Made by a program: the position numbers and the translations under genes
Assembly (NCBI GenBank): GCA_044221725.1
Contig: JBGAON010000005.1
Span: forward strand, 143,598-207,597
Reading direction: 5' to 3'
Source: Elusimicrobiota bacterium
GTDB taxonomy: Bacteria; Elusimicrobiota; Elusimicrobia; F11
Length of the DNA: 64,000 bases
Shown: positions 10,100-61,401 of the stretch, piece by piece
Layout of the letters: every line of letters begins with the position of its first letter
How positions within the stretch are numbered: position 1 is the stretch's first letter
Notes under the pieces: model-generated
Databases searched by the model: none
What the model saw: only the letters and a program-made list of their open reading frames with translations
What the model was told of the DNA's origin: nothing

Positions 10100-10152
10100 T
10101 TACAACAAATTTGCAAGTCCTTAAGATTGGCTTAAGACAGCTCTTGTCTAAT
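10100..10152 (+). promoter_or_regulatory. Conserved four-repeat operator/promoter, copy 1
   Basis: TTAC-aacaaat-TTGC-aagtcc-TTAA-gattggc-TTAA-11nt-TCTAAT, then 7 nt to the GTG start; same spacing as copies 2-4. Confidence 0.75.
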
Positions 10153-10159
10153 AGAAATT

Positions 10160-13100
10160 GTGAAAAAATCCCTCGTAAGGAGCGTTGCGGCGGCTCTATC
10201 GGTTGTTTATTTTGCAACGAACATTGCGTGGGCACACCAATCAGCCGTTGTCGAATTGGATTTCCGGTCTCACGCGACAATTTGGGCGGACCGCAAACCA
10301 ACAGAGCCGTACCCAAAGACTCCGCCAACAAAGCTCGCCGCCCTGCCTGCCAACATCAATGCGCAACTGCCCTCGATCAATCGCCAATTCTCTGCGATCA
10401 AAGAAAACGCCGCTTCGATTTCTTCCCGCATAAGTAATTCGCTTTCGGAGAAGAACGCGCAAATGCTGGCGCCGCTTTTTCGCACGCTGCCGCAAACCGC
10501 GGGCACAATTCGAAAAATTGAAGTACCGCGCGCGGAGCCGCGCGGAGTCGTCGTGCACATTCAGGATGTCCACCGAAATTTTGAAGCGCAAACGAATATC
10601 GGGAACGCCGTCGAGCAGCTGACCCGTGCGAATCTCGTTCAAGCGGTGGCGCTCGAAGGCGCGTTCGGTCCGATTGATTTGTCGTGGTACAACAATTATC
10701 CGTTTCAGGATTCGGTGAAAACCGTTGCCGACTACTTATTAAAGGAACACCGAATTTCTGGACCCATCCGTGCGGGTATGACCGCGGCGAAGAACCAGGA
10801 ACTAGGAACATCGTACATCGGTATTGACGATCCCACTCATTACGCCGCCAATGTCCGGGCCGTGCGCGCCGCAAAGACAGCCGAGACGAACATCAAAGAG
10901 GATCTCGAAAAACAAAATCGCGAGCTCGCCGCTGCGAAACTGAAATATTTCAGCGCTGCGCTAAGAGATTTCGATCGTCACGTGGAGGCTTATCGCCGCG
11001 GAAATGTTTCGTGGGGCGATCACGTGGAATATCTTTCCGACAAATCCGTAACGCGGGTTTCTCCACGCATCGACGCATTCCTTGTTGCATTAACGATGGA
11101 GAAAGAACTGAATGTTGCGGCGATCGAATCGGAGCGTGCGCGACTGCTTGAAAAGCTGGCGGGCAAGCTATCGAAGGGCGAAACGAACGAGTTGCTAGCG
11201 ATGAGCGCGGCTTTCCGTGATGGGCGCCTTAATCACGCTGACTTCTATTCGTTTTTGAAAAGATTCTGCCAACAGAAGTCCATCGACCTAGCGAGCTACC
11301 GTTCATTCGACGGGTATGTTCGTTACGTGTTGCTTTGCGAGCGTTTGGATGTGGAAGCAATTCTCGAAGAAGTGGCGACGCTCGAAAAAACAACCTATTC
11401 ATCGCTCGCACGAACAGAAAAAGAAAAGGAATTGGTGCAAACGGCGCGCGGGCTGTATTTGGCGGGGAAATTAACGGATTTTGCGCTGACGAAGGAAGAG
11501 TGGACGGAATATAGGAGTGAATTTATAACATGGGGAGGGAAAAGGCCCTTTGAAGAATTTTATAAGCAGGCCGAGCTTCGAGACTCGGCAATGGCCAATA
11601 ATCTCATCCACGTACTACGTAGCCGGTACAAAGTACCACGTACGTCTCTCAGCATCCTTGTCACCGGCGGCTTCCACTCGACCGGTATCGACCGCCAACT
11701 TGTGGACGCGGGATACACCGTCGTAACCTACATTCCGAAAATTTCGAAAGTCGACGACGTCGCGGGCTCTTCCTACCTCAGCGTGTTCACGCAGGAAAAA
11801 ACGCCGCTCGACCAACTGTTCGCGGGCGAGAAACTTTTCTTGGCCGAGAAGCCGGTTGCCTCTGCCGCAATGATGTCGTCGAGCGTGCACATGGTAAATC
11901 AAATTAATCATCGCGGCGCAGAATCTCCAGCACCATTGGATGTTCCAGCAAAAGACGTTGCCGAGACCAAGGTGAACGGTGACGAAGCGCAAATGCCGAT
12001 GAAGGGTGGTATTTTGAAAATTCGGGCGAGATCTGGTGGCTTGCTTGATATTCGATTCAACCCGTCATTGCTTCAGCGAATTGCGGGTGTAATCGCGGTG
12101 GGCGCCCTCATGTTGTTTGCTGGCGTTTTGCCCGCGCAAGATTTTGCGCAAGGTTCCCAGGGAGCGCCGGCGGCCACGGCGCAAGATGCGAATGCTGTCT
12201 CGCTTGCGTTGAAAATTACGGGCGTGTTCTTCGGCTTGTTTGCGGTGCTCCAAACCGTGATCACTGTTCAGCGCACATTCGAATGGAACCTTCGCGATTG
12301 GAAGCGCGGACAGGTGAGGCCAAGAGAGATGCTTTCCATGGCAGGCTCGTGGCTGTTCGTTGACATTTCTTTGCCCGCGATGTTCGGCACGGCGTGGATG
12401 ATTTTGCATCTTGGATACAACTTCGCGATTTCAAACATTGGGATGCGGGCGCTCCTTTTTGGAGCTGAGAAAGAATATTTCACTTTTATGGCGATGACAC
12501 TTTTCCTTGCGATCGTTCTTTTTCTGCTACGCGATCCCCGGTTGTATTCTGTCCGGCAGGAACGCGAAGGCGTGACGTCCGGGCCGGAGGGAAATAACGA
12601 CAGAGCGCATTTGCGCTATTTGGTCCCCTGGCTTTTTGCACCGATCATCGCCGGCGCGATGCCGAGCGCGATGTTGGCCCAGTCGGGCGCGCCGCCGGTG
12701 GAAAATTCGAATCGCGGTTTTTATCAAGCCGCCGCCAAGAATGCTGCGGTGGAAATTGCGCCGGAAGCTGACGCTGCTCAGCCGAAATGGAAGGAATTAA
12801 TGAACTTCGGTTTCCAATTCACGGCGACCGGTGACATTCGCGGCGGCTGGGGCAAAACCGATTTTGATTGGAACCGCACGAAAACCGAGCAGGCGAAATT
12901 GGTGGAGATGTTTAAAGGCAACGTGTACACGACGTTCGTGAATGATTTCGACCAAAAATTGAAAGACCGTGAGCTCACGGCCAAATTTCTCAAGAACCCG
13001 ACATGGCGCAAGAAAAAGATTGATGAGATGGTCGAGCTCGCAAAAGGCAGTCTCGGCGTCGGAATTGATTTTGAAAACATGTCGCGCAACAGCACGGCTG

Positions 13101-16100
13101 ATTTCAAGTTGTTCATTGAAGAGCTCGCCAAAGAACTCCACGCGAAAAATTCAAAGCTTTGTGTGATTGTCGAGCCCAAGACCGATACAAACGTCGGTGA
13201 TCGCGGACGCGCGATTGACTGGGCGCATCTCGCAAAACACGCCGACGAAGTTCAGGTGATGGCCTATTGGTACGGGCAAGGCCCCACCCGGCCCGACCAG
13301 ATTGCGCCGCTCAGTTGGATCAAGCAAATGGTCGCGCTCGCGGAAAAACAGGGACTCAAGGGAAAATTCACCGTCGCGCTCACCACATTCGGTTACGACT
13401 GGGCTTTGGATGGGTCCGGCCGGCAGGCGCTCAGCAAAACCGCGTTCTCGGAAATCGAAGCGCAGAAAGCGAATTGGAAGCGCTACGCGGACGGCGGCTC
13501 GATTTACTACGAATACACAGCGAACGACGGCAAGCAACACCGAGTTGTCACGGAAGATCTCGTCAGCATCCAACAAAAATACGAAGAGTTGAAAAAATTA
13601 CAGATCCCCGTCGTGTTGTGGGCGTTTGGTTTTGGTGACCCGGAAATTTTTAAGTGGGGTGAAAAAGCAGGTCTGTCCGTTTATCTTCCCTACTTTAGCG
13701 AGCCGGTCAAAGAGCTTTTGCGCAAACCGCAAACGCCGAAGACCGATAAGGTTGACCTGCAATTCCGCGGAAGCCCGTTTTTCCTCTTGGCATTGATCGG
13801 CCTGTTCATCGGTGCGCCGTTGTCGTTCGCGAATTCCAGTTCGGTCTCCAATTCCGCGAACGCCGGGACTCCGTCGGTTCCGGTTTTTGCTCAAGCTGGT
13901 TTGCTTAAAGAATATTGGTTCCTTCCTGTGATTGTTGGAATCGTAACTGCCGCGGTCATCTTTTTTATTTTGCGGAGCCGGTGGCCTAGCAATCCGCCGG
14001 CGACGGTTATGGAAGCGCCGACGCCGAATTACGCGTCGGACGAAGAACTTAAATCTTTCGTCGAGCGAAATCTTGCCCGATCGTATCTTGACGTGCCACG
14101 GATTTTGGTGGATGCACGACAAATAGTCGCCCCGCCTTCTGTTCAGGATCTGGTTGGTCGTCTTATTGCCGTGTGTGCTGATTTTGTTGCGACGGAACAG
14201 CGCATCGAAGACGCCGACGAAGCCGGATCAAAAATAACTGCTGTACTGAAAGCCATTCAATCCCGAGTGAAATTGAAAGTTGAAGCTCGTTACATCTCCC
14301 AACAAACGGCCGACGATTTTTGGATTACAGATGAGCAGCTTTTATCGAGAACCGCAGAATTCTTGGATTGGATGAATGATGGCCTTGCCGGCGAACGCAA
14401 AAAGCCGGCCACGATGATTCCCGAGCCAGATTTGGTATTGCCCACCGGCAATGAAGTGGGAACATCCTTCGTCGTAAGCATCGGCGGAACGAATGGTTTC
14501 TTGCAGGAAGTAACGCTGTTGGGCCACGGCGAATTTGAGAACAAAGGCAAAACGCGCGTCGATATTTTGCGCTACAAACAGGATATTTCGGGCATTTTCG
14601 ACGAATACGCCCAGGCGATTGCCGCGCGCATGGGAAACCAAAAAAAAGAGCAACGTTCGGTTGGTGTTGTTTGGGCGCATCCGGTTGAAAAGATCCGCGG
14701 GAAGGTGATCGCGCGCGGCTTGTCAAAAGGCTGGCTCGATCCGCAGAAGAAAGTTGTGGACCAGGATATTCAGCAATTGTTCAACGATGCGCTTCGACGT
14801 GCCGGTCTTGCGAACGTAACGGTCAGTATTGTCGTGAACGATACCTTTAATCCGCTGGCGGCACTGTCGTACATTCTTATTGGCAAACGCAAAAAGACCA
14901 AAGCGGCGCTTGCCGGTGCGATTTTGGGCACCGGTTCGAACGAAGCTTTCTTCGTGCCGGGATTTGGTTGGATAAACGGCGAGACCGGCGCCGATGATAT
15001 GACCAACCGCGATGGTTACGAACTATTTTCTACGCTCGAAGACAAAATTGTCGCTGCCGAAGATCCCGTCAATGAACACCGCTTTGAAAAACGTGTCGCT
15101 GGTAATTATCTCGCGAAGCTGTTTGTGCTGCGTCTCAAAGCAATCCGAAACGGAACAGGCATGTTTCGCTGGCTCGACGAAATTCCCCAATTTCGCGACG
15201 AAACATTGGACAGTTCGTTCCTGTCGTTTGTTGCGGACAAAAATATTCGGGACCTGATTTCCATTGAGCGAAAAATTCGGGAAATGTATTGGCGATCGCG
15301 CAAACATTCCCGTTTTGTTGCCAAGTTGTTGTCCCACACGGAAAAAACTTCTTTCGCGAGCGATCACGAATTGTTTGTGATGTACGAAGCCGTAAAAGCG
15401 ATTGCCGAACGATCCGCACGGCTTTTGGCCACGCATTACGCGGGTATCGCGCTGCGAAACGATCCGGAAATTAAGGAGCCGCAATGGTTCGCCGTTGAAG
15501 GCAGCGTGTTCAACAAATACCCGGGCTACAAAGCCATGGTGATGAATGCGATTGTGAAAATTGTCGGAGTGGAAAAAGCCGCCCGCATCGAATTGATCGG
15601 AGCCGAGGAAATTGCCCAAAATCTCGAAGGCGTGGGCGCTGCCATTCTCGCGATCACGGCGTACAACAAGCAGCGTGTTGCGCCACACGACGCGGTAAGA
15701 GTTTTTGAAGAGCTTCGCGCCGCGTCCGGCGGACGGCGGGTCACGGTTGTCGGAGCCAATGATTTTGCGGTGCAACATGAGGCTATTGGAAATCTGTTTA
15801 ACGTCGCGGGGCCCACGGAAATCGCTGTATTAACGGGAGGCAACTGGGCCCAAACCGGCGCGCGTGTCGAAGCGGCACCGCATACGAAAGCCATTGGAGT
15901 ATCGTCCGAAGATTTTCTGCAGTTGCTAAACATTTTCGCGGAAGCGTTCTCCAATTTGAATGGCGTGAACCAGCACATTGTTCAAGAATTCCGAGAGGCG
16001 GCGCAGCGATCGGGCGTGCTCGTGCCGAGAGAATTCTTGACTGGCCTTCACGTTACACCCGACGCGATTTACAACTCGCATCCGGCGGTCGGTGCACTGA

Positions 16101-17749
16101 ACGAGGCGCTCCAGCATCTTGCTTTACCGGCGGAGCACCCCATTCACTCTTTCGGGCCGAAAGATACGCACGTGTACTATCTGGACTTGGTTGTGCGGGA
16201 TCGTGAAGGAACTGTGCGCGTGGTACCCACCCATCGAAGCGCACCCATTATCGCGAGCGACGTCGAAATTCTCGGTATGGGACCTCGAACCATGGAAGTG
16301 TGGGCCAATATCATCGCGGAATCCGGTGGCATTATTCAGCTGGGCGCCGCACCGCACGTCGATCTGCCGACAGGCCAACATTACAGGGCGGCGGGGGTCA
16401 AAGCGCGCATGCACGATCTCGCCTCGCAAGGCCTCGTCGTTGAAGAATTCTTAGATGGAGTGACGCGCTACACATTGAAACTGCCGACAAACGCGGTCGA
16501 CTTGCGTGCGGACTCTGTTTCGACGAATTCTGGGGGCGCTGCGTCAGCGGCGGGCTATCACGGGCTTATCGTGTTTTTTACGCCGAGTCGAAAAGTTTTG
16601 ATCGCTTCCGTGCTTTTGTTGGTAACAGAAATTGGCGGACTTTTGTGGGGAAATTCCCATTCGTTGTTGCTTGGGGCCACCATCGCTGCCGCGGCTCCGT
16701 TTCATGTCGTTTTTGCGGAGCAAGGCAAAGATCCGTGGCTCGCGCGCGCCAATCAAAATGACCAGATGCTCGGTCATGTGTTGACTTGGGGGCTTTATCC
16801 GCTCGCGTTTCTTGCGATGCGCGGCTTATCGGCGATGATGTTGCCGTTGCCAGCGGTCGCTTATGTTCCTCTGGCCGCTGCGGTCGCCTATCATTTGCAA
16901 AAAGATTTTCGCTATTTCCGCCAAACGTTGAACCGCATTCGTGCTGCTGAAAAAATTGCGGCCGTGAATCACGCAATCGAAAGTTCCCCAGCGGATTCCA
17001 ACGGGAATGCGAGCGTGCAACACGTGCTCGCGAATCTTCGAGCGCGGGATCGCAAAGATGGCGGTCTCTCCAAAAATATTTCGGAACTCACGCCACATTT
17101 AACGAACAAAATTTGCACGTCACCGCTGTTGAGATGGTCGCGGATCGTCATGTTAAGCGCTGCAATGTTGGGGACGAACGGAATAAGCCAAGCGAACACC
17201 GCCAACGTGAAGCTCGACCGCGGGAGCAACATCGTCACGGTTGTGGTTATGGACGCGAGCGATGTCGAAGACAAAAAGGGAAGCCTGTTGCACGACACGC
17301 TGCGCAATATCGAAAAGCAGATTCGAGAGGGGAAGCTTGGCGCGACGGTCACCGTGGCCATCCCGGAATCGATGGTGGAAGACGCTTCCGCTCTCAGGGA
17401 AAGTGCCAAGCGATTGGCGCTTGATTTTGACGTTCCGGTCGTCGTGACGATTGACCGCGCGATAATCGGTCGAGGATTTGATCAACCGAACCGTTTCACG
17501 TTGAACCAACACTACGATGACGCTACGAGAGAAGTTGATAATCACGGTTCGCACAAGGCCGCGGAAAAAATTCGTTTCTACCAAAACAAAAATTTTGCGG
17601 GCGTGAACGTGAAAGTGGTGGCTTCGAAAGCGACGCCGTACACGGCGAATGGCGCGCTGACCCAAATTGCGCAGATGACAATTGCTGGCGTGACGATTTC
17701 TATCAGCGAAGCAATCAAGCTCGCCGAACTCGCCTACAAGATGGCGTAA
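10160..17749 (+). CDS. Giant protein 1 (2529 aa): signal peptide, conserved N-terminal domain, TM segments, GH18-like domain, hexokinase-like domain, TM module, C-terminal domain
   Basis: N-domain QDVH..EAQ, ALEG, GIDD, LTKEEW, GGFHS, YLSVFTQEKTPL (~10547-11841); GH18 GIDFE, DEVQVMAY, FGYDW, LWAFG (~12808-13641); hexokinase LPTGNE, IGGTN, VVNDT, ILGTGSN, FEKRVAGNYL, EGSVF (~14420-15650). Confidence 0.85.
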   Translation: MKKSLVRSVAAALSVVYFATNIAWAHQSAVVELDFRSHATIWADRKPTEPYPKTPPTKLAALPANINAQLPSINRQFSAIKENAASISSRISNSLSEKNAQMLAPLFRTLPQTAGTIRKIEVPRAEPRGVVVHIQDVHRNFEAQTNIGNAVEQLTRANLVQAVALEGAFGPIDLSWYNNYPFQDSVKTVADYLLKEHRISGPIRAGMTAAKNQELGTSYIGIDDPTHYAANVRAVRAAKTAETNIKEDLEKQNRELAAAKLKYFSAALRDFDRHVEAYRRGNVSWGDHVEYLSDKSVTRVSPRIDAFLVALTMEKELNVAAIESERARLLEKLAGKLSKGETNELLAMSAAFRDGRLNHADFYSFLKRFCQQKSIDLASYRSFDGYVRYVLLCERLDVEAILEEVATLEKTTYSSLARTEKEKELVQTARGLYLAGKLTDFALTKEEWTEYRSEFITWGGKRPFEEFYKQAELRDSAMANNLIHVLRSRYKVPRTSLSILVTGGFHSTGIDRQLVDAGYTVVTYIPKISKVDDVAGSSYLSVFTQEKTPLDQLFAGEKLFLAEKPVASAAMMSSSVHMVNQINHRGAESPAPLDVPAKDVAETKVNGDEAQMPMKGGILKIRARSGGLLDIRFNPSLLQRIAGVIAVGALMLFAGVLPAQDFAQGSQGAPAATAQDANAVSLALKITGVFFGLFAVLQTVITVQRTFEWNLRDWKRGQVRPREMLSMAGSWLFVDISLPAMFGTAWMILHLGYNFAISNIGMRALLFGAEKEYFTFMAMTLFLAIVLFLLRDPRLYSVRQEREGVTSGPEGNNDRAHLRYLVPWLFAPIIAGAMPSAMLAQSGAPPVENSNRGFYQAAAKNAAVEIAPEADAAQPKWKELMNFGFQFTATGDIRGGWGKTDFDWNRTKTEQAKLVEMFKGNVYTTFVNDFDQKLKDRELTAKFLKNPTWRKKKIDEMVELAKGSLGVGIDFENMSRNSTADFKLFIEELAKELHAKNSKLCVIVEPKTDTNVGDRGRAIDWAHLAKHADEVQVMAYWYGQGPTRPDQIAPLSWIKQMVALAEKQGLKGKFTVALTTFGYDWALDGSGRQALSKTAFSEIEAQKANWKRYADGGSIYYEYTANDGKQHRVVTEDLVSIQQKYEELKKLQIPVVLWAFGFGDPEIFKWGEKAGLSVYLPYFSEPVKELLRKPQTPKTDKVDLQFRGSPFFLLALIGLFIGAPLSFANSSSVSNSANAGTPSVPVFAQAGLLKEYWFLPVIVGIVTAAVIFFILRSRWPSNPPATVMEAPTPNYASDEELKSFVERNLARSYLDVPRILVDARQIVAPPSVQDLVGRLIAVCADFVATEQRIEDADEAGSKITAVLKAIQSRVKLKVEARYISQQTADDFWITDEQLLSRTAEFLDWMNDGLAGERKKPATMIPEPDLVLPTGNEVGTSFVVSIGGTNGFLQEVTLLGHGEFENKGKTRVDILRYKQDISGIFDEYAQAIAARMGNQKKEQRSVGVVWAHPVEKIRGKVIARGLSKGWLDPQKKVVDQDIQQLFNDALRRAGLANVTVSIVVNDTFNPLAALSYILIGKRKKTKAALAGAILGTGSNEAFFVPGFGWINGETGADDMTNRDGYELFSTLEDKIVAAEDPVNEHRFEKRVAGNYLAKLFVLRLKAIRNGTGMFRWLDEIPQFRDETLDSSFLSFVADKNIRDLISIERKIREMYWRSRKHSRFVAKLLSHTEKTSFASDHELFVMYEAVKAIAERSARLLATHYAGIALRNDPEIKEPQWFAVEGSVFNKYPGYKAMVMNAIVKIVGVEKAARIELIGAEEIAQNLEGVGAAILAITAYNKQRVAPHDAVRVFEELRAASGGRRVTVVGANDFAVQHEAIGNLFNVAGPTEIAVLTGGNWAQTGARVEAAPHTKAIGVSSEDFLQLLNIFAEAFSNLNGVNQHIVQEFREAAQRSGVLVPREFLTGLHVTPDAIYNSHPAVGALNEALQHLALPAEHPIHSFGPKDTHVYYLDLVVRDREGTVRVVPTHRSAPIIASDVEILGMGPRTMEVWANIIAESGGIIQLGAAPHVDLPTGQHYRAAGVKARMHDLASQGLVVEEFLDGVTRYTLKLPTNAVDLRADSVSTNSGGAASAAGYHGLIVFFTPSRKVLIASVLLLVTEIGGLLWGNSHSLLLGATIAAAAPFHVVFAEQGKDPWLARANQNDQMLGHVLTWGLYPLAFLAMRGLSAMMLPLPAVAYVPLAAAVAYHLQKDFRYFRQTLNRIRAAEKIAAVNHAIESSPADSNGNASVQHVLANLRARDRKDGGLSKNISELTPHLTNKICTSPLLRWSRIVMLSAAMLGTNGISQANTANVKLDRGSNIVTVVVMDASDVEDKKGSLLHDTLRNIEKQIREGKLGATVTVAIPESMVEDASALRESAKRLALDFDVPVVVTIDRAIIGRGFDQPNRFTLNQHYDDATREVDNHGSHKAAEKIRFYQNKNFAGVNVKVVASKATPYTANGALTQIAQMTIAGVTISISEAIKLAELAYKMA

Positions 17750-17827
17750 CACAATCCTAGTCGCTTTTTTCCGTCGATCTTTAAGCAAACACATCTATAA
17801 ATCAGTTCGTTTTTCGACGGAATTCGT

Positions 17828-17880
17828 TTACTGAAAATTTACTACTTCTTAAGGCAAACTTAATCCACTTCCGATAGCCT
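17828..17880 (+). promoter_or_regulatory. Conserved four-repeat operator/promoter, copy 2
   Basis: TTAC-tgaaaat-TTAC-tacttc-TTAA-ggcaaac-TTAA-11nt-TAGCCT; followed by a short leader with GGAGG (17901-17905) before TTG 17910. Confidence 0.8.
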
Positions 17881-17909
17881 GTCTTATAAGAATTCGGGGG
17901 GGAGGCCTT

Positions 17910-45546: not shown

Positions 45547-45555
45547 GCGTAAGAT

Positions 45556-45608
45556 TTACATTTTGTTTACGCGTTCTTAAGGAATTCTTAATCCGCGGCG
45601 ATTAGTAT
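45556..45608 (+). promoter_or_regulatory. Conserved four-repeat operator/promoter, copy 3
   Basis: TTAC-attttgt-TTAC-gcgttc-TTAA-ggaattc-TTAA-11nt-TAGTAT, then 6 nt to ATG 45615. Confidence 0.85.
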
Positions 45609-45614
45609 TTCTTT

Positions 45615-48600
45615 ATGATCTACGCCGATCGAGAGCAAGTTTCAGTATTTGTTCGACTCAAAAAACTCACTGCGGTTTCCATCCTTTTTAGTTTCACGTT
45701 CAACCAAATCCTTTTCGCGCATGTGCCCGAGACATCGGTTTGGTCCGAACGCCAACGAGCCCAGCCGTCATCCCGGCACGTATTTGGCCGGGATTCACGT
45801 GTTCTCCACGAAAACCTAGGTCTCGTACCAAAGGAACGTACCGGGACGATGGGTTCTCTCGCCGCCTTCTCCACGCTTCGTGAAACCTACAAAGGCGGGT
45901 CTGGTACATCCCTCCTTATTATTCAGGATATTCACTTAAACACCGAGGCCCAAGCGAACATTGTGAAAATGTTCGACGTGCTGAAAAAAGAAGGGCGCCT
46001 TGGCACCATCGCCACCGAAGGCGTTTCCGGAAAATTCAATTTCGCACAGTTTTTTGCGCCGGGCAATGAGTCGGCTCGCAAAGTGGTGGCCCAGGCATTT
46101 TTGAACGATAAACGAATTGCAGCTCCGTCGTATTTTGGCGTTACCGCTCAGCAGCCAAACGCGAACGTGTTTGGCGTTGATGATGAGTCGCTCTATGCTC
46201 GAAATGTGCAGGCGTATGTTGACAGCTCGAAAAAACAGAAGGAGCTAGTTAAGAATATAGAAATCGAGCGCCGTGCCGTGGCTGAGCAGAAAAGAAAAAT
46301 ATTCAACGCCGACTTGATGCGTTTGGATTCGATAGTTGATTCGTATCAGGCGGGCAGCCTTCCGCTTGGAAAATTTTTGCCGCACCTTACGTTCACGTCG
46401 CCGGCGTTAAAGAAGTTCGCGGAAGCGTATGCGCTCGAGCAGAAAATCGATTTTGATCGCGTCGCGCGCGAACGCCGCTCCGTCATGGAAGTGCAAGCGC
46501 TTTCCGTTTCTCAGAAGAAAATGTTCGGCGATTATTTGCGCTACGTCGATTTGGCAAACAGCATCAACGCCGATGAACTTGTTCGCGAATTGCAGGCGGC
46601 CACGAAAGCATCGTTGCTGGTTCTCGCAAAAACGCCAGCCGAACGCGAGCTGCTGCAAGCGTCTCGCGCGCTCGTTCTAAAAACACATCTTGTTAAGTTC
46701 TCCCTAACGCCGGAGGAATGGAAAGAGATCCGTGGCCTCAAAGGTGTCGGCTTTAAGCCGTTCGACGATTTTTATTCGCTGGCGGACTCTCGCAGCGAAA
46801 AGATGGTCGAGAACCTGTTGAACGAAAGCTCAAAGCCATCCGTTCTTGTGATCGGCGGTTTCCACACGCCGGGGGTCACGGCAGCGCTCAAAAAGCGCGG
46901 CATTGGTTATTCTGTCCTCACACCGAAAGTTACGAAGCTCGAAGATTCCGATTCCTCGTATCTGTCCATCTTCACGCGTGAAAAGACGCCAATCGAGAAA
47001 TTGTTCGCTGGTGAAAAGCTTACGATCCTACCGCAGCAAGTGTTGATCGGAGGAAACGGTCGGCTTGCGCAACAGTCCAATGACTTGTTTCGCCTCGAGT
47101 TGGCTTTCACGGAACTCGCTGCACAAATTCGTGCGATGCGCATTCACCGGTATCAGAGCACCGTTGGTGAGAACATTGCTTACACCAACATTCAAGGTCA
47201 GGATTATTATGGAATTGATCCGACGCTGGGAATCAATGTGCCGAAGGGATTCGAGAGACACGGCCTTATCACGGCGCCGGATGGAACGCGTGTCCTTCTC
47301 CTCGAGCGAACGTCCAAGAGCATTTTCTCCATTGAAGGATTGAAAGGTGCCGTACAAGCACTTAAAGATGTTAACAGCGTAATAGCAGCGAATCGTTACA
47401 CGATAACGCTTCTGGCGGGCTTGGTGTTGTTCGCATCGACGGGAAAAACATTCTTCCTTGGAATTGCGGCGCTTCCTTTTATTTTCGGCCTCACGATCGT
47501 TTCTTCCCCGGTCGGCGCGTCCAATTGGGTAGAAGAAAACACGCCTGGTTTGGCGGGCAAGAATATCATCGAAGTAACAATGGAGATGGCGTTACCCGAT
47601 GCTGCGATCGAGGAGCTTTCGCGCCGCGGTGCAACCGATGACGAGCTCCGCGCCGTTGCCATGGCTTCTTCGACGGGCGGGATCGGTCCGTTGTTGCACG
47701 AGCGCGTTATTGCGCAGTCCAATTTGGGAGCCCACGTTACCGCGGTTTCGCTTTTGTACGACAAAGTGTGGGTTCAGAAATTCAAAAAAGACAAAGACGG
47801 TCATGACATCATCAATCTCGAGAAAGTGGAAGTCGGGCATCTGCTGCGAAATTATTTCGAAAAAATGCCGTTCACGATTGATCTTGAAATGTACGACGAA
47901 TCCATTGTCACCGCAGAGGTGTACCGCGCACCAACTGGCCTTTACGGACGTGCCAACGTGTATTTCCTTTATCACCCGTCGATGACCGAAGTGGTGTACC
48001 CCGGCGAAAGAGATTTTCCGGATCCCCAAGAACCCGAAAAAACCACAAAGCGACGGCAGTTTAAAGAGACCAGCCGGTTGCAACAAAACTGGTTGGTGGG
48101 CCGGGGAACCTTGGCGTTGCTCGAAAAACTGAACGAACAGACCAACGTGGCGCCCGATGTTATCGTCATGAGCGAAATGCCGACGGTGTTTGTTCATCAC
48201 CGAATGTTTTTGGATCGGTTCTCGGAACACCCACTGTTCCGAAAAGCAAGTTATATTTTCAATGATCACACGCCGCTCGAATATGCGCATCCGAAATGGA
48301 TGTGGCATGAACTGAAGAACATGCGACTTGACCCGCGCTATTACGAAGGAATTCCGTCCGTGTGGGGAAGCAAAGATGGGGAGCGGGCCGTTGATGGCAC
48401 CGCGATGATCATCAACGCGGCGGATGCCGTTTATGGCGTTGCGAAAAAGCACGGTGAAGTGATGCGCCGCATGCCGCTCTTAAACGAGTTTGCGTCAAAA
48501 ATCGACTCCATCACGAATGGCGTCAGCCCGAAATGGATGGCGAAAGAGTTTGGAAGTATCGAAAACGTGAAGCGGTTATCAAACACGCAACTTCTCGAAA

Positions 48601-51542
48601 TCAAAAATAAAAAGCGAATGGAGTTGTTCCGTTGGATCGAGAAACGTAACGGGATGAGAGCCGGATGGGCAGACGACATGATTGCCGCAAACAATCCCAT
48701 TGGTTTGTGGACGCGCAGAATTGTCGGTTACAAGCGTATGGACGTGTTCACGCGGCTCATTGAAGATGAGCACATGCGAGAAGAGTTTCTTAAATCCGGA
48801 ATTGTCTTCGTTATTGGAGGACGTATTCATCAAGACGATACGTTCGGCCAAGACCATTACGCTCGAATCCAGAAAGTTGTTCACAGGGATCCTCGGCTCA
48901 AAGACTTCGTGGTGTTTTTTGACAATTACAATACCTGGGAAGCGAAGCGATTGATGCAGGGTGTGGATTTTTCGACGATGCTCGCCGACGATGGCTACGA
49001 AGCATCGGCGACGGGGTTCCAAAAGGCATTGTCCAACGGTGCTCTTATTATTGCGAGCCGTGACGGCGCTGTTCCCGAGTCCGTCGTTTTTTATGAACCA
49101 AACTCGGACGAGAATGAAGCCAACGGCTTTGAAGTGCCCTACGTCAGCCAATTTAATCCGGAGAACGGAGCGTGGAAAATGGGTCCGACGCCACAAGGGC
49201 TCTTGCACGCGTTTTCATCGTTCCGTCACGTTTTTAACGAAAAAGAAACATTGGGCCGAATGGTTCGCAACGCGTTCAATCTTTCGCCGCGCGTTGACGT
49301 CACTCGCACAGCGATCGACATGCTTACTTTCTTCGAAGATGTCATTGAAGGAAAAGAAATTAAAGACAGTTATTTCCAAAATGGCCGACTGCGGGTTCGG
49401 GAAATAATATCGGGGATCAATTTCGAGCCGGGCGTTCGCGAACGAATTATCGGCCAACTCGAATTGGTGGAAGGTTTTTCCTGGAAATATCTTCGCTACG
49501 GTCACGATGAGCAGATTCTCCCGTCGAATTTATTGAACTTCCGTACGAAACCGGATGAGAGACCGGATCGGGGGCTCGCGGCCATGGCGGCGGCCGTCGC
49601 TTATATTCGGTCCATTGGAACGGTGGGCGAATGGTCGTTGGCTTATCACGCTGCGAATCACGGCGGTATCGGCGACATCCCAACATTTTTCTCGGAAGCC
49701 ATCGCGAAGATTCCTGAATTGGCTCCGTTGCGAGACGCGGTGCTGAATATTGGAGAAGCCGCGAAAACGAGCAACAAGCCACAGCATGTCCTGAATCTCA
49801 ATCGCATTATTCTTGGAATGATGGAAGCGTTGGTGGAAAGCCTGCGGGAACGCATTCCGATTCGGCAAGAGGAAACGGGAAAATTGAGCGCTCGTCGGCA
49901 GGTTCGTCTTTCGAATTTGCTCCGTTCAAAAATTCAATTTGAAACGCCCGTCCCGAGACTCCAGCAACTTGATCACAATAAAGTCGGCGCTTCTATTCGA
50001 TTTCATCTGGAAAATCACATGATTCCACGAACGGAATTTTTTATTCATTGGGGAGAAGTCGGTAAGCCGAACTGGCAGATTGTGCATGTAAACCCCGAAG
50101 AAATACATCTGTTGGCAAACAATGTGTCGGTGTTGTCCAAGACCATCGATGTCATCAAACCCGGACGCTACGGCGTCACGGTGTTTGCTGTTCCAAAAGG
50201 AGTGGGAGCCGATCCGAAGCACGATGAGCTTCGCGTCTATTCGGCGAGTTATTTCGGTGAAGTGGCGGAGTTTCAGGTCCACGACGAAATGGGCGTGCAA
50301 ATGGCAGGGCATTCGCCGGCGCCCGTTCCGGGTGCGATCGGAATTCTTCCGAATTCAAAAATGAGTTTCGCTGATCGCGGTGCGGCGGAAGGCGCGGCGA
50401 CGTCCGTGCTCGGAATGGCACTTTTCGCGGGCGTGAATGCGCTCGTCGCGCTTCGTCTCGCGGAATCGCACGTGATCGCTGCATCGTTTGAGCCGTTTGT
50501 TCGGTGGAGCATGGCAACCGCGATTACTTTGATTGTTTCGTTCGCGTTGATTTACGCGGCGCATCGCGCGCTCGGCGTAAAACTGCCGGGGCAGAAGGAA
50601 CCGAGTTTCGATCAAAATAGCGTTTGGTCCGCGACACGGGCGGCCAGCGTGAGCTTGTTCGCACCGCTCCTTGCATCGTTTGCCGTTTTTGCACCAATGT
50701 GGGCAACGCTTCCGCTCGTTGGAGTCGGATTTGCCGCGGGAACGCTGTTGCACCGCGAGAAAAACAGGCCTGCCGATTATTATCCACTGACGAACGCCGA
50801 AGCAAAATTGGCGAAAAGTTATGCGCAGCGAACGAAAACGGAAACTTCCGCTGAGATTCTCGCACGTGTTTCGAAATTAACCGAAATTCGCAATGCGGAA
50901 CTTGTTACGTATACGACGGAACGTCAGAACCTCTATCGTCACGCGTCCGCGCACGCAGCGGAGCCTTTGAACGCGTTTGCACGCGAAGCCGCTCGATCGG
51001 GCGCACGTCCGAATGTGAAAGTCTTGTCACTTGATAAGCAGCTAAAGACCGGTGATATCGGAATGCTTGTTCCACAGGCAAACAATGCCGCCGAACTCGC
51101 AGCCGAAATTCGTGCAGCGCTTAAACTGGCGCAGCAAAAAGAGATGCGCCAGGTTTCTGTTTATATGATCGCATCGAAAGCGGACATCTTTCAGGAAGTT
51201 CGAAATCCGGACACGACGACGCTGACGCACGCTGAAATTGGAGCGATCACGTTCATCGACGAAACCGCGGTGGACACGAATGAAGAAATCGCCGAGCGCT
51301 TACTGGACCCCACGATTGGCACGGACGGAAAATTTGACTTGCTCGTGCACGGCGCGCAGGCACTTCCGAAAGCGCTTGCACAATCGTTGGCCGAACTGGG
51401 TCGCACCGAAAAATACGCAAACAAGGTGAAGCTCAGCATCGCGGATGAGATTTCCGCTAATGCACGCGCGATGGAGTTTTCTGATATGCGCGACATCGAA
51501 GCGCTGCTTAAGTTCTTCGAGCTCGTCGGGAAGTACGCGTAA
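45615..51542 (+). CDS. Giant protein 3 (1975 aa): conserved N-terminal domain, TM, GT35 alpha-glucan phosphorylase-like domain, possible carbohydrate-binding module, TM module, C-terminal domain
   Basis: N-domain QDIHLNTEAQ..YLSIFTREKTPIE (~45909-47027); GT35 motifs TMEM, TGGIG, RLQQ..LVG, DHTP, GVAKKHG, ITNGV, RRIVGYKR, EASATGFQKALSNG with the PLP Lys (~47560-49350); FFIHWG module ~49940-50290. Confidence 0.87.
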   Translation: MIYADREQVSVFVRLKKLTAVSILFSFTFNQILFAHVPETSVWSERQRAQPSSRHVFGRDSRVLHENLGLVPKERTGTMGSLAAFSTLRETYKGGSGTSLLIIQDIHLNTEAQANIVKMFDVLKKEGRLGTIATEGVSGKFNFAQFFAPGNESARKVVAQAFLNDKRIAAPSYFGVTAQQPNANVFGVDDESLYARNVQAYVDSSKKQKELVKNIEIERRAVAEQKRKIFNADLMRLDSIVDSYQAGSLPLGKFLPHLTFTSPALKKFAEAYALEQKIDFDRVARERRSVMEVQALSVSQKKMFGDYLRYVDLANSINADELVRELQAATKASLLVLAKTPAERELLQASRALVLKTHLVKFSLTPEEWKEIRGLKGVGFKPFDDFYSLADSRSEKMVENLLNESSKPSVLVIGGFHTPGVTAALKKRGIGYSVLTPKVTKLEDSDSSYLSIFTREKTPIEKLFAGEKLTILPQQVLIGGNGRLAQQSNDLFRLELAFTELAAQIRAMRIHRYQSTVGENIAYTNIQGQDYYGIDPTLGINVPKGFERHGLITAPDGTRVLLLERTSKSIFSIEGLKGAVQALKDVNSVIAANRYTITLLAGLVLFASTGKTFFLGIAALPFIFGLTIVSSPVGASNWVEENTPGLAGKNIIEVTMEMALPDAAIEELSRRGATDDELRAVAMASSTGGIGPLLHERVIAQSNLGAHVTAVSLLYDKVWVQKFKKDKDGHDIINLEKVEVGHLLRNYFEKMPFTIDLEMYDESIVTAEVYRAPTGLYGRANVYFLYHPSMTEVVYPGERDFPDPQEPEKTTKRRQFKETSRLQQNWLVGRGTLALLEKLNEQTNVAPDVIVMSEMPTVFVHHRMFLDRFSEHPLFRKASYIFNDHTPLEYAHPKWMWHELKNMRLDPRYYEGIPSVWGSKDGERAVDGTAMIINAADAVYGVAKKHGEVMRRMPLLNEFASKIDSITNGVSPKWMAKEFGSIENVKRLSNTQLLEIKNKKRMELFRWIEKRNGMRAGWADDMIAANNPIGLWTRRIVGYKRMDVFTRLIEDEHMREEFLKSGIVFVIGGRIHQDDTFGQDHYARIQKVVHRDPRLKDFVVFFDNYNTWEAKRLMQGVDFSTMLADDGYEASATGFQKALSNGALIIASRDGAVPESVVFYEPNSDENEANGFEVPYVSQFNPENGAWKMGPTPQGLLHAFSSFRHVFNEKETLGRMVRNAFNLSPRVDVTRTAIDMLTFFEDVIEGKEIKDSYFQNGRLRVREIISGINFEPGVRERIIGQLELVEGFSWKYLRYGHDEQILPSNLLNFRTKPDERPDRGLAAMAAAVAYIRSIGTVGEWSLAYHAANHGGIGDIPTFFSEAIAKIPELAPLRDAVLNIGEAAKTSNKPQHVLNLNRIILGMMEALVESLRERIPIRQEETGKLSARRQVRLSNLLRSKIQFETPVPRLQQLDHNKVGASIRFHLENHMIPRTEFFIHWGEVGKPNWQIVHVNPEEIHLLANNVSVLSKTIDVIKPGRYGVTVFAVPKGVGADPKHDELRVYSASYFGEVAEFQVHDEMGVQMAGHSPAPVPGAIGILPNSKMSFADRGAAEGAATSVLGMALFAGVNALVALRLAESHVIAASFEPFVRWSMATAITLIVSFALIYAAHRALGVKLPGQKEPSFDQNSVWSATRAASVSLFAPLLASFAVFAPMWATLPLVGVGFAAGTLLHREKNRPADYYPLTNAEAKLAKSYAQRTKTETSAEILARVSKLTEIRNAELVTYTTERQNLYRHASAHAAEPLNAFAREAARSGARPNVKVLSLDKQLKTGDIGMLVPQANNAAELAAEIRAALKLAQQKEMRQVSVYMIASKADIFQEVRNPDTTTLTHAEIGAITFIDETAVDTNEEIAERLLDPTIGTDGKFDLLVHGAQALPKALAQSLAELGRTEKYANKVKLSIADEISANARAMEFSDMRDIEALLKFFELVGKYA

Positions 51543-51580
51543 AATCGCGTCGTTTCTTCGTCGCAGAAAATAGCGTTCCG

Positions 51581-51633
51581 TTACAGAAAATTTACGCGTT
51601 CTTAAGGCGAACTTAAGACAGCATTCGTATAGT
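51581..51633 (+). promoter_or_regulatory. Conserved four-repeat operator/promoter, copy 4
   Basis: TTAC-agaaaat-TTAC-gcgttc-TTAA-ggcgaac-TTAA-11nt-TATAGT, then 6 nt to ATG 51640. Confidence 0.85.
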
Positions 51634-51639
51634 GGTTCC

Positions 51640-54600
51640 ATGAGATTTTCGTTACGAAAAGGCAGTGCCGCCTTTATTGCCGGTTCTCTTTTTATCACCC
51701 AGGTTCTCACGAATCCGATGTTGGTGCAAACCTGTTTTGCGCAAAACACCGGATTTGGATTGCGCGCCAGCGCCGATATCTGGACGGAACGTTCGAACCA
51801 AATTGCTCGCCTAAAATCTCCGCAAGCCGACATTTTTCCAACGCGAGCCGCCGATAACGCGTTTAAACCTTTCTTCCAATCCGTCAATCCATTCGCGCGC
51901 GTGGGCGAAACACACATCGAGAACAACGGCGGCCCCACGGTGTTGTTGCTGCAAGACGTTCACATGAATCTTGAGGCGCAAAAGAACATCGGCGAAGTCT
52001 TGTTGCGCACGCCGAAGAATTCCGTGATCGGCGTGGAAGCGGCCGTTGGCCCTTTTGATTTTTCGAAATTCCGTTCTTATCCGGAACCCAAAATTCTCGC
52101 GAACATCGCGTCCGTATTGCTGCGCGAAAATTATATTTCGGCGATTTCGTGGATGGGACTCACGGCCAAGGGCTCGCTGCCAACGATTGTCGGCGTCGAT
52201 GATTCCAGTTTGTATGTGAAGAACGTCGACGCGTTCAAGAACACAATTGCGATAAAAGCGGATCGGTTATCCAGCATCGAAACGGCCCTGCAAAAACTCG
52301 CGCATGAAAAAGCCGATTTGTTCTCCGCTGAAGAAAAAGCGCTCGATGCGTTGATCACGAATTACGAAGCCGGCAACGTCACGCTCGCCGCGTATATCCA
52401 ATCGTTGGAACAATCGGTTTCAATGGATGCGTTCCCATCGCTAAAAACGTTGTCGGCCGCGCTTCAGCTGGAAGCGCGTTTGGATCAGAAACAAGCCGAA
52501 CAAGAAAGGGAACGGCTTGTTCGAAAGATTTCCGCCACCGATTCCGCCGCGCTCCAACAATTAACAGCCCTCAGTATTTCGCACGGCGCCGGCGAAATGG
52601 AGGCTACGACGTTTTATTCCGAGTTCCGCTCCATATTAAATGCGCATCATATTTCGCTCGCAGCGTACCCGCATTTTTCCACCTACGTCGAATACGCAGC
52701 GCTCGCCGACGGCATCAAGCAAGAAAGAATCTTCAAAGAAATTCAGGATTTGACGAAAGCCGCGATCGGAAAAATCGCGCGCCGTGAGCAAACGAAGCAG
52801 CTTTTTAAACAAGGCCGCACGCTTTTTCTTGCAAAGAAGCTTGTAAATTTCGAACTGACACCGGAAGAGTGGAAGGAATATCAAGTGGGTCCTGGATTGC
52901 GACATTCCAGGACGACAGCGTCAGTACCTTCCGGTACGAACTTGGAGGCTTTTTTCGACTTCTACCGCTATGCCGAAGCGCGCAACGAGAAGATGGTGAA
53001 CAATCTTTTGAACGCGCGGGGGAATTCGAACACGATCGTTTTGCTTGCCGGTGGTTTCCACTCCGCTGGTATTCGCGCGCTTCTTCGTGCGCGCGGTGTA
53101 TCGTACGCGGTGCTCACGCCGCGCATTTCCCAAGACAATCTTGGAAACGGATCTGCTTACTTGGGCAGTTTCATTCGTGATCGCACGCCACTCGAAAAGC
53201 TTTTCTATGGAGAAAAACTAACGGTTGCTGCGGCGGATACCATTCTTGGCCCATCGAACCCAATTGCTCCGGGCCGCCGCTGGTTGCCCGCGGCTGCCAT
53301 CTCGTTGACCGCGGTGCTCGCGGCCGCGTACTTTGCTACGGGCGCAAATCCGAATTTGGAATTGGCCACGCTCTCGGCCTGGATAGCGGGCATTTCGGGC
53401 GGTGTCGCGATTCTGTTGAGCGCCCAAGACCGTCGGGCGCACCTCAATATAAATGGAACAGAAATTGAAGCGGGAGCCGAACTTTCGGCGCCCGCCTATC
53501 GCACGATCAAAGATGTTCCGGGCCTCGGCAACGTGGGATGGAACACGCACCGCTCCTTTGGCACCGTGATCAAAGGCATTGCGCTGGTTGTTTTTGGAAT
53601 TGCGTTTATCAAGTTACTGACGAACGTTTTCGAACCGTTTGTAAAAGCGCGCGACGTGATTGCCGTTGGACATTCTCCGTCATTTCCTATGCGCACGGGT
53701 TTTTTCCGATGGGGATTCTTGCTCACGATTGGCGTCGCTTTCTTGAGCATGGTGACAACCACCCGAGCGTACTTCCATCGGTTTGCGCCGGAAAAAAGTT
53801 TCGGTGACCTTCCTGTTGAGAAGCTCAATTCGATGTCGGACGTCGAATTGTGGAACGAGATAAAAAAGAACGGATACATTCGAATTCATGAACGGCTTCC
53901 TTATCTGCCCCACGGCGGCAGCCGCGTGGAAGGACGGCTTTGGAATTACTTCCTAACCCATTCGGTGGACGAGCTTGTCCCCGATTTCCAAAAAATGGAC
54001 GCGTGGACCGTGGCCCAAGTTTTGCAGAACGAAAACATCATGAATCATGAGCACCGGTTGGCGAAACCGCACAAAATCATGATGGCGCTGTCGCACGAGC
54101 AGCGCTCCGATGTGAGCGACAACATGAAGCTCAAATATTACCGCCAGCTAATGGATCCAACGCGTGTAAAAAAAGTGGTCTACATTGCGAGCGAGGTTCG
54201 CGGAATTTTCCACACAGGCGGCATTGGGGTTGTGGCGGACAGTTTCCCGCGCGCGATGCAGGGGTTTGGTCACGATGTGAGTCAGATCCTTCCTTATTAT
54301 GAGGGCGTCGGTATCGAAGAAGAGATTTCCAAGAATGTTGCGGCCGGGATTTGGACGAAAAAAGAATTGTTCCAGAAAATCAATGTGCCAATGGATGGGC
54401 ATATCGTTACCGCGACGGTCGTTCAGATTGATCGGCGCGATCTGCCAACGCTTTATCTGATTCAGAATCCGGAATATTTTGGCCGATACACCATGGGGAA
54501 AGACAAGCGGGGCAAATTAAATCCCTACTTCCCGGCGAATTTGCCCAATTCGCACGCGAGCTTCACCGAAAGAGAGATGTTGACGCTCGAACGGTTCATT

Positions 54601-60450: not shown

Positions 60451-60543
60451 CCTAAACATCTCGTCAAATAGGTCGTTTTCCACTTGCCGTGATTATTGAC
60501 ACCCCCCGTGGCATTCCCATGACACGCGCGTTACACTCGATTC

Positions 60544-61380: not shown

Positions 61381-61401
61381 TTACGATATAATTTCAGCAC
61401 T

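Follow-up and report, generated by a model that had tools for sequence, protein, structure and literature searches.

Three described promoter systems come closest to the element treated here, an operator of four short repeats that recurs upstream of giant genes in a 64,000-nucleotide (nt) stretch of an Elusimicrobiota genome (GenBank assembly GCA_044221725.1, contig JBGAON010000005.1, positions 143,598 to 207,597 of the forward strand; referred to below as the window). In the PmrA (BasR) system of enterobacteria, represented by the pbgP/arn, ugd and pmrCAB promoters, the pmra-box is formed by two XTTAAY hexamers 5 nt apart and overlaps the −35 element, and a dimer of PmrA, a member of the OmpR/PhoB family, contacts region 4 of the sigma factor (PMC10570014). 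The PhoB site on pstS occupies positions −41 to −25, four base pairs (bp) upstream of the pmra-box (PMC10570014). In Alphaproteobacteria, the CtrA box has the form TTAA-N7-TTAA and lies at the −35 position of most CtrA-activated promoters, some of which possess extra upstream sites (PMC11264516). Finally, PhoP of Streptomyces binds cooperatively to operators of as many as six 11-nt direct-repeat units, and now and then a site lies over the −10 and represses (PMC2275107).

The genes concerned also have described counterparts. Elusimicrobia are among the phyla prone to huge proteins (PMC11573180), and the giant-gene loci of Omnitrophota and other phyla are alike in that small genomes devote a large share of their coding capacity to proteins of several thousand residues. 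The word "promoter" does not occur in the available text of PMC11573180 or of a preprint on the giant genes of Omnitrophota, and no shared promoter or regulon is reported there. A search of the literature on Elusimicrobia giant genes, promoters and leaderless mRNA, which extended neither to supplements nor to many subscription papers, found no such promoter.

The element in the window is genuine and conserved, and it serves as the promoter for a regulon of giant surface or secreted proteins. It is most probably operated by one or two response regulators of the OmpR/PhoB family, and its four repeats are predicted, with better than even confidence, to be where the activator binds in a clade-specific class of sigma-70-type promoters. 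The promoter works like those of the PmrA, CtrA and Pho systems but belongs to none of them.

The four operators of the window

The source genome (G000) comprises 2.82 Mb in 5 contigs (C1 to C5) with 52% G+C and is 94% complete, and the window corresponds to C2:143598–207597. A search of the window with the pattern TTAC-N7-TTRC-N4-YCTTAAG-N5-CTTAA, allowing up to 3 mismatches, returned exactly four sites, at 10100, 17828, 45556 and 51581, all on the forward strand and with 0 mismatches, against a mean of 0.00 matches in 100 shuffled windows. Repeat starts are spaced 11, 10 and 11 nt apart in every copy, and each copy precedes one of the window's four open reading frames (ORFs) of at least 1900 amino acids (aa), which encode 2529, 8862, 1975 and 2936 aa. 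In the following list, the −10-like hexamers and the predicted transcription starts (+1) were read by hand; +1 was placed at the seventh base after the hexamer, that is, at position 59 counted from the motif start, according to the usual distance between a −10 element and the start site. Scores refer to the position weight matrix (PWM) described in the next section.

10100–10135, forward strand: operator copy 1 (TTACA / TTTGC / CTTAAG / CTTAA, spacing 11/10/11), PWM score 31.8 bits
10147–10152, forward strand: −10-like hexamer TCTAAT; predicted +1 at 10159, GTG start at 10160, essentially leaderless
10160–17749, forward strand: 2529-aa member of the giant N-terminal family, with GH18 and Hexokinase_1/2 domains
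17828–17863, forward strand: operator copy 2, PWM score 41.5 bits
17875–17880, forward strand: −10-like hexamer TAGCCT; predicted +1 at about 17887
17896–17905, forward strand: G-rich, Shine-Dalgarno-like run GGGGGGGAGG, 4 nt before the TTG start at 17910
17910–44498, forward strand: 8862-aa member of the giant N-terminal family
44496–45546, forward strand: IS30-family element with a transposase ORF at 44567–45532 (HTH_38 and rve domains), ending 10 nt before operator copy 3
45556–45591, forward strand: operator copy 3, PWM score 40.2 bits
45603–45608, forward strand: −10-like hexamer TAGTAT; predicted +1 at 45615, the A of ATG, leaderless
45615–51542, forward strand: 1975-aa member of the giant N-terminal family, with a carbohydrate phosphorylase-like domain
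51581–51616, forward strand: operator copy 4, PWM score 46.2 bits, the top site of the genome
51628–51633, forward strand: −10-like hexamer TATAGT; predicted +1 at 51640, the A of ATG, leaderless
51640–60450, forward strand: 2936-aa member of the giant N-terminal family, with starch-synthase-like Glyco_transf_5 and GT1 domains

The last giant gene and a 278-aa ORF with no Pfam match are followed by a gene for an Omp85/POTRA outer-membrane protein at 61402–63015.

An initial annotation of this stretch had reported the pattern at the same four positions with 11/10/11 spacing, the four hexamers 15 bp after the start of the last repeat, and no canonical −35. Each of these observations is borne out: the matches are exact where shuffling predicts none, the hexamers begin 15 nt after the start of the last TTAA at four of four sites, and a scan for the sigma-70 consensus called no promoter at any of them. 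Motif positions 24–29, where a −35 would be expected, read AGGCGA-like. The same annotation had called the operators identical, which is true of the consensus common to the copies but not of their spacer bases. When the four regions are aligned, only the repeats and a TAG downstream of them stay constant and the spacers vary; the window holds copies of a motif, not of one sequence.

The half-sites TTACA, TTACA, CTTAAG and CTTAAT lie on one helix face, with the proximal TTAAG pair at about −39 to −23 and the distal TTACA pair at about −59 to −44 relative to the predicted +1. The anatomy fits an OmpR/PhoB-type activator site, as the initial annotation had maintained, with phased direct repeats in place of the −35 and a proximal pair that ends 11 nt before the −10; nine OmpR-type regulators are encoded in the genome. 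The proximal half, YTTAAK-N5-CTTAA, has the form of a pmra-box, and its position falls between those described for the PhoB site and the pmra-box, within 2 bp of them. In contrast to the PmrA promoters, an extra distal TTACA pair brings the total to four half-sites, the targets are giant secreted proteins instead of lipopolysaccharide-modifying enzymes, the transcripts are predicted to be mostly leaderless, and the host belongs to the phylum Elusimicrobiota. The proximal half can equally be read as TTAA-N7-TTAA at the −35 position, as in the CtrA promoters described; in contrast to these, the upstream sites consist of a different half-site (TTACA) at strict helical phase instead of irregular spacing, and the regulon shows no link to the cell cycle or the replication origin. 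With the Pho boxes of PhoB and PhoP in E. coli, Bacillus and Streptomyces, which have two to six units per operator, the element shares direct repeats of about 11 nt on one helix face and, as predicted here, activation from the −35 region. The core site of Bacillus PhoP, with four repeats from about −60 to −20, would be the closest match in layout.

Membership in each of these regulons was rejected on the features tested. No PmrA orthologue is present, with best scores against the NCBIfam PmrA model of 159.8 and 160.7 bits (cut-off 330), nor a CtrA orthologue, the CtrA model scoring 143.0 and 151.8 bits (cut-off 350) against L001 and L002, two response regulators to which we return below. The Pho regulon was rejected on two grounds. 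The pst/phoU cluster (pstS at C3:149408, phoU at C3:153090, adjoining the PhoB-like regulator L003) has no motif of at least 6 bits within 7 kb of L003, and L003 is distributed class-wide (29 of 40 relatives), unlike the motif. The phosphate signalling suggested by the initial annotation is accordingly not sustained.

Judging by the geometry between promoter and start codon alone, most transcripts of the giant genes are probably leaderless. At 45615 and 51640 the predicted +1 is the A of ATG itself, and for the gene that starts at 10160 it precedes the GTG by 1 nt. In the window only the 8862-aa gene would have a leader, of about 23 nt, with its Shine-Dalgarno-like run before the TTG at 17910.

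Genomic distribution, target genes and conservation

Across the genome, the exact pattern occurs in 6 copies, with 24 copies at up to 3 mismatches and 31 at up to 4. An iterated PWM of 38 columns, applied at a cut-off of at least 18 bits, produced 49 raw matches (register shifts included), which reduce to 40 non-overlapping sites; a first-order Markov-shuffled genome yielded 0 at the same cut-off. Thirty-eight of the 40 sites are located outside the crude ORF set, in DNA that makes up 4.9% of the genome, and 39 lie just upstream of a same-strand ORF start. This placement is independent of the training of the matrix. The initial annotation had proposed an element at the level of a regulon and had named background frequency or random spacing as grounds against it. 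What was found is about 40 sites, nearly all of them correctly oriented before gene starts, conserved across genera and absent from the shuffled genome.

Information in the columns of the 40 sites is confined to the repeats, which start at 0, 11, 21 and 32 in every site, and to TAnAAT at 47–52, with spacers near 0 bits. The spacing to the gene is similarly constrained. For example, TAnnnT occurs 11 or 12 nt past the motif end in 26 of the 40 sites, and a start codon follows 20–27 nt past the motif in 28; measured from motif start to start codon, the distance is 59–60 nt in 13 of 39 sites and 52–66 nt in 24. Column counts reveal neither the −24/−12 pattern of sigma-54 nor a −35/−10 pair of the extracytoplasmic-function (ECF) type, only the four repeats and TAnAAT.

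A TTGACA-like −35 is found in 0 of the 40 regulon promoters. Canonical promoters (TTGACA-17-TATAAT) do exist in this genome, in 12 of 691 other intergenic regions versus 1 of 637 coding controls, and the combination supports dependence on an activator. It also bears on the opposite arrangement, in which the repeats would form an operator for repression or silencing and a protein lying over −60 to −23 would keep the costly giant genes off until released. The sites do lie where RNA polymerase has to make contact, and in six promoters of the genome and one orthologous promoter (see below) a TTAC-N7-TTAC pair covers the −10 and start, a position from which PhoP-type regulators can repress (PMC2275107); CtrA sites are described as both inducing and repressing (PMC11264516). 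With no −35-like hexamer, however, unaided initiation should be weak and an activator is the simpler explanation, and the proximal pair sits where PhoB and PmrA activate. Repression as the main role therefore appears improbable.

Two individual sites deserve mention. A gene of 8369 aa is preceded by two complete operators 95 bp apart, at C5:256552 (all-TTAA type) and C5:256647 (TTAC/TTAA type, with an extra phased TTACA ahead). A strong operator at C3:188842 (37 bits, with CATAAT as its −10) has no assigned ORF of at least 100 aa and may drive a small gene or a non-coding RNA.

The share of genes with the motif upstream rises with their length: 0 of 1040 ORFs of 100–300 aa, 5 of 871 of 300–600 aa, 6 of 201 of 600–1000 aa, 12 of 58 of 1000–2000 aa, 10 of 15 of 2000–4000 aa, and 5 of 8 of at least 4000 aa. 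The initial annotation had the operator preceding every giant gene, which is correct for the window, with 4 of 4 ORFs of at least 1900 aa, but too broad for the genome, where the motif precedes 15 of 23 ORFs of at least 2000 aa and 27 of 81 of at least 1000 aa. Since the motif is missing in front of ORFs as long as 13689, 8021 and 7987 aa, gene size itself is not the criterion, and the N-terminus is a better predictor. When the first 150 residues of 1153 ORFs of at least 300 aa were clustered by BLAST, one cluster of 26 proteins (775–8862 aa) emerged, of which 25 have the motif. The only member with no detected operator is a 2258-aa ORF at C4:359653.

The N-terminus of this family begins with a hydrophobic, signal-peptide-like segment (called here from N-terminal hydrophobicity alone), often contains E-x-N-x-W-x-E-R-R, and continues through a variable linker to a conserved block, QD[VI]H-x-N-x-EAQ ... 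EGAFG ... G[VI]DD. Against Pfam, the block gave a weak match to Cofac_haem_bdg (ChaN/Tiki superfamily), at 30.4 bits in one protein (cut-off 27.7) and below the cut-off in another. NCBIfam returned no meaningful match to the first 200 aa of the four window giants, and look-alikes of the N-terminal domain found by features are unnamed clusters from Elusimicrobiota and Omnitrophota.

Thirteen further motif genes, of 38 of at least 300 aa in all, are unrelated at the N-terminus. They include three barrels of the PorV/UPF0164 type, a HAMP histidine kinase, a TPR protein, a MiaB-like enzyme, a protein with a Por_Secre_tail match just below the cut-off, and giants of 18006, 8766 and 8369 aa. Altogether, motif-driven genes account for about 11% of all coded residues by summed ORF length; ORFs of at least 1000 aa account for 21%.

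Several signal-peptide-like giants embed enzyme domains that are normally cytoplasmic. In the window these are hexokinase together with GH18 (10160–17749), a glycogen-phosphorylase-like domain (45615–51542), and starch-synthase-like GT5/GT1 domains (51640–60450). Elsewhere in the genome (C3:791181 and C5:199955–200158), a PRK/uridine-kinase-like domain is embedded in the same way, and a 1963-aa member has a Sigma70_r2 match (E = 3.9e-10).

The element is shared by a defined set of relatives. All 11 other genomes of its family (f1), which represent 8 genera, contain the strict pattern, as do 2 of 3 genomes of family f10; 26 genomes of eleven other families gave no match, and the reversed control gave 0. 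A core-only pattern (TTAM-N7-TTAM-N6-TTAA-N7-TTAA) was then applied to 201 genomes of the class and occurred in 11 of 11 f1 genomes (9–23 copies each), 10 of 15 f10 genomes (up to 41 copies) and the single f15 genome. It also matched 3 of 57 f7 genomes, where the matches listed are AT-rich and unlike the motif, and 0 of 116 genomes of twelve other families; the reversed core pattern gave 6 matches in all. At 21 sites from 20 loci the downstream anatomy is the same, and 17 of these are followed within 200 nt by a reading frame that is open to the locus end.

The giant family is expanded in every f1 genome, with 11–36 matches at E of 1e-40 or lower, and its best identity across genomes is only 33–40%. 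The motif lies upstream at 11 of 12 family loci of relatives, the twelfth having just 53 nt of upstream sequence. That the element is far better conserved than its proteins argues for selection on the element and not for simple inheritance. The five f10 genomes with no exact core pattern still hold the giant family, with 7–17 members each, and exact TTAC-N7-TTAC is present in 9 of their 14 evaluable upstream regions, compared with 6 of 280 control windows. In 6 of the 14, the third repeat (TTAA) is also present. A TATACT-type hexamer stands at the same +47 offset, and the fourth repeat has decayed. These apparently motif-less genomes hold a decayed variant of the operator.

The IS30-type element of the window is one of five such ends beside operators. 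A second copy, 100% identical, lies at C1:244396–245446, in the same position before the operator at C1:245456, and three further ends or remnants, at C3:310954, C3:449424 and C4:616245, finish in ...GAATTCAG. In all five, precisely 10 nt separate the end from the first TTAC of the operator downstream. The arrangement GAATTCAG-N10-TTAC occurs 6 times, versus 0–1 at every other gap of 6–14 nt, and a full operator follows in 5 of these cases, which suggests that the IS30-type element may insert site-specifically next to this promoter.

The similarity among sites might have no regulatory function at all. The repeats might have been inherited through duplication of the giant family, might belong to an RNA element of a long 5′ leader, or might simply be an IS30-type target site. 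Consistent with this, 25 of the 38 motif genes of at least 300 aa are paralogues, the five IS30-type ends stand at a fixed 10 nt, and one RNA contig crosses a promoter. Passive inheritance is nevertheless difficult to reconcile with near-invariant repeat columns beside unconserved spacers, with a motif that outlasts protein divergence to 33–40% identity over 8 genera and precedes 13 unrelated genes, and with the fact that 38 of 40 sites are non-coding, at a fixed orientation and distance to the start codon. The RNA-element version was rejected: an Rfam scan of the window gave no match, and folding z-scores of the four sites (+0.57, −0.37, −1.54 and +0.47) reveal no shared structure. Taken together, a non-functional origin is very improbable.

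Candidate regulators and the weighing of the evidence

Nine genes of the OmpR/PhoB type are encoded in the genome (Trans_reg_C matches above cut-off). Orthologue profiles were compiled for these, the KdpE-like L006 and L007 aside, over the same 40 relatives. Orthologues of L001 (C5:212300–212992) occur in 10 of 11 f1 genomes (84–94% identity) and 3 of 3 f10 genomes (61–62%), with at most 47% identity elsewhere. L002 (C2:273275–273979) is found in 10 of 11 f1 genomes (75–87%), 3 of 3 f10 genomes (57–61%) and none elsewhere. L003 is class-wide, f1 and f10 included, and L004, L008 and L009 occur in 6, 6 and 2 of the 11 f1 genomes, in 0 of 3 f10 genomes and nowhere else. On these profiles, L001 and L002 share the motif's clade, and singly or together they are the most likely, though putative, regulators.

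The genomic context of these genes is also of interest. L001 lies in a cluster (L110, C5:207942–215491) with an FtsH-like AAA/M41 protease, an HlyD-type protein, a HAMP histidine kinase, a hybrid receiver-kinase and an NtrC-type sigma-54 activator, and in both this genome and the relative G007 the cluster immediately precedes the motif-driven gene of 8766 aa. Two f10 genomes have the motif at the head of an operon that includes the L001 orthologue, in one case with three more phased TTACA repeats ahead. In family f4 (locus L150, G014:C3:32500–38500, and likewise L151 of G024), an OmpR-type gene and a large gene are divergently transcribed, and the large gene encodes a protein that starts with a hydrophobic, signal-peptide-like segment. 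The 82 nt between the two (L150 3099–3180) accommodate five repeats spaced 11/11/10/11 (TTACA three times, then TTCAA and TTTAG). A TAAAAT lies 15 nt past the start of the final repeat, as the hexamers of the window do, and an ATG follows after another 9 nt. The f4 protein most resembles L002 (44.9% identity) and L001 (44.7%), and in recognition helix and wing it is nearly the same as L002.

A working model can be drawn from this anatomy. Two dimers of one or more OmpR/PhoB-family response regulators would bind the two pairs of repeats, the proximal dimer recruiting RNA polymerase through region 4 of sigma and the distal dimer stabilizing the complex. Transcription would begin on the start codon or a few bases from it, leaving most of the very long mRNAs leaderless. 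In this manner, about 40 promoters would drive 25 of the 26 giant family members, the outer-membrane barrels of the PorV/UPF0164 type, the histidine kinase and a few other giants.

The repeats could instead be read by a factor outside the OmpR/PhoB family, either an alternative sigma factor whose promoters have an extended upstream element or a DNA-binding protein of another fold peculiar to the clade, and the element would still be a regulon promoter. The genome offers candidates, with ten Sigma70_r2 matches of which about seven or eight are in small frames of 187–284 aa, and the binding of L001 and L002 is a prediction on which their co-occurrence with the motif within the clade is uninformative. 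Against such a factor, the downstream hexamer is the housekeeping-type TAnAAT at a fixed distance; four phased half-sites reaching to about −59 are unlike the contacts of a single sigma; the half-sites equal known boxes of the OmpR family in sequence and position; operator-like arrays stand beside OmpR-type genes in three families; and, for sigma-54 in particular, the column counts hold no −24/−12 pattern. We regard this alternative as possible but unlikely, and continue to favor an OmpR/PhoB-family regulator.

The element is also modular. When scanned apart, a TTACA pair (module A) and a TTAAG pair (module B) occur together at +21 in 19 cases, and other arrangements exist. For instance, six promoters of the genome (S12, S21, S22, S35, S36 and S39), and the orthologue of S35 in G007 (L030), have three or four TTAA repeats first and then TTAC-N7-TTAC over the −10 and start; between S35 and L030, 19 nt around the TTAC pair are identical and the spacers differ. 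In another arrangement, three TTAC(A) repeats at 11-bp spacing occur with no TTAA half, at 11 sites in the genome (0 in the reversed control), ten of them on contig C5 (regions C5:462–464 kb and C5:570–605 kb). Several precede ORFs with lipoprotein- or signal-peptide-like N-termini, and by their composition these triple arrays are classed as a separate, predicted type of promoter. In the class, every one of the 11 f1 genomes has them, and they extend to f2, f4, f5, f6, f8, f10 and f11, with few control matches. Because this spread is wider than that of the composite operator, the TTACA module is probably older and the composite operator a clade-specific elaboration.

The initial annotation had proposed a single response regulator; one protein may read both half-site types, or two may read one each, as the TTACA and TTAAG pairs enter into other arrangements, and L001 and L002 fit equally well. 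A more elaborate scheme, which as a whole is speculative and rather unlikely, would have L001 and L002, as two paralogous regulators restricted to the clade, each read one module, one the TTACA pairs and the other the TTAAG pairs. Shuffled arrangements (A-A-B-B, B-B-B followed by A-A over the start, and A-A-A) would then wire a graded programme in which leaderless mRNAs of up to 27 kb deploy a surface and secreted arsenal of about a tenth of the proteome, and the same complex would guide IS30-type insertion 10 bp upstream.

A number of observations weigh against the promoter model favored here, or against L001 and L002 as its regulators. L005, also a possible regulator, is better kept in f1 than either of them (11 of 11 genomes, 88–98% identity), with orthologues in 0 of 3 f10 genomes and none elsewhere. 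Within the clade, L001 occurs in all 5 motif-less and all 5 motif-bearing f10/f15 genomes, and L002 in 3 of 5 and 4 of 5, respectively. These figures do not discriminate, so that regulator and motif are co-distributed at the level of the clade only, which may reflect shared ancestry. The decayed variant found in the motif-less f10 genomes removes the contradiction, but it also removes co-occurrence as a test; nor, in f10 genomes, did an intact fourth repeat go together with L002. The nine regulators all score below the cut-offs of the NCBIfam equivalogs, the nearest solved relatives of L001 are generic (RegX3, MtrA and RpaA, with PmrA/BasR only the 23rd–24th PDB match), and no regulator gene stands behind a motif in the genome.

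To these may be added points of method and of RNA. The gene set consists of crude longest-ORF calls with the first in-frame codon taken as the start, which leaves several start codons uncertain, and the PWM was trained and scored on the same genome, which makes its scores optimistic. The paralogy of 25 of the 38 motif genes of at least 300 aa means that part of the promoter similarity is inherited and not independent. RNA data were assembled contigs from four metatranscriptome runs (X1–X4) of one wastewater study. Over positions 44000–61999 of the window they cover the genes patchily (25, 22, 17 and 18 of 30 bins) at a low depth of 1–7 and with no pile-ups of starts or ends, and contigs of this sort cannot show a start. 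One of them (X3, record 19) spans 51476–51682, across promoter 4 and upstream of its predicted +1; it represents read-through transcription or DNA carry-over. A terminator scan of the gaps in the window gave counts not clearly above those of shuffles, with only a weak 5-bp stem (51535–51550) in a gap. The claim of the initial annotation that each giant gene has its own promoter is thus plausible, although with no convincing terminators in the gaps and an RNA contig across promoter 4, read-through is possible.

Meaning for giant-gene expression

The mechanism proposed for this promoter is of a known kind; the regulon, the composite layout and the predicted leaderless giant transcripts appear to be new. 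The Omnitrophota giant-gene preprint asks in its conclusions what regulates giant genes and whether they are expressed as single units. In an uncultured lineage of Elusimicrobiota, a short conserved DNA signature now predicts the members of one programme and offers a first opening for tests of their joint activation. Two or three regulators stand as candidates for tests in vitro, for which the organism need not be cultured, and the geometry of the promoter predicts leaderless translation of mRNAs of 6–27 kb.

The signature is also of use in annotation: it can settle where a giant gene truly starts and identify members of the regulon in related metagenome-assembled genomes. If the regulon answers a cue from a host or prey, its sensor would be sought in the adjacent kinase cluster that holds L001.

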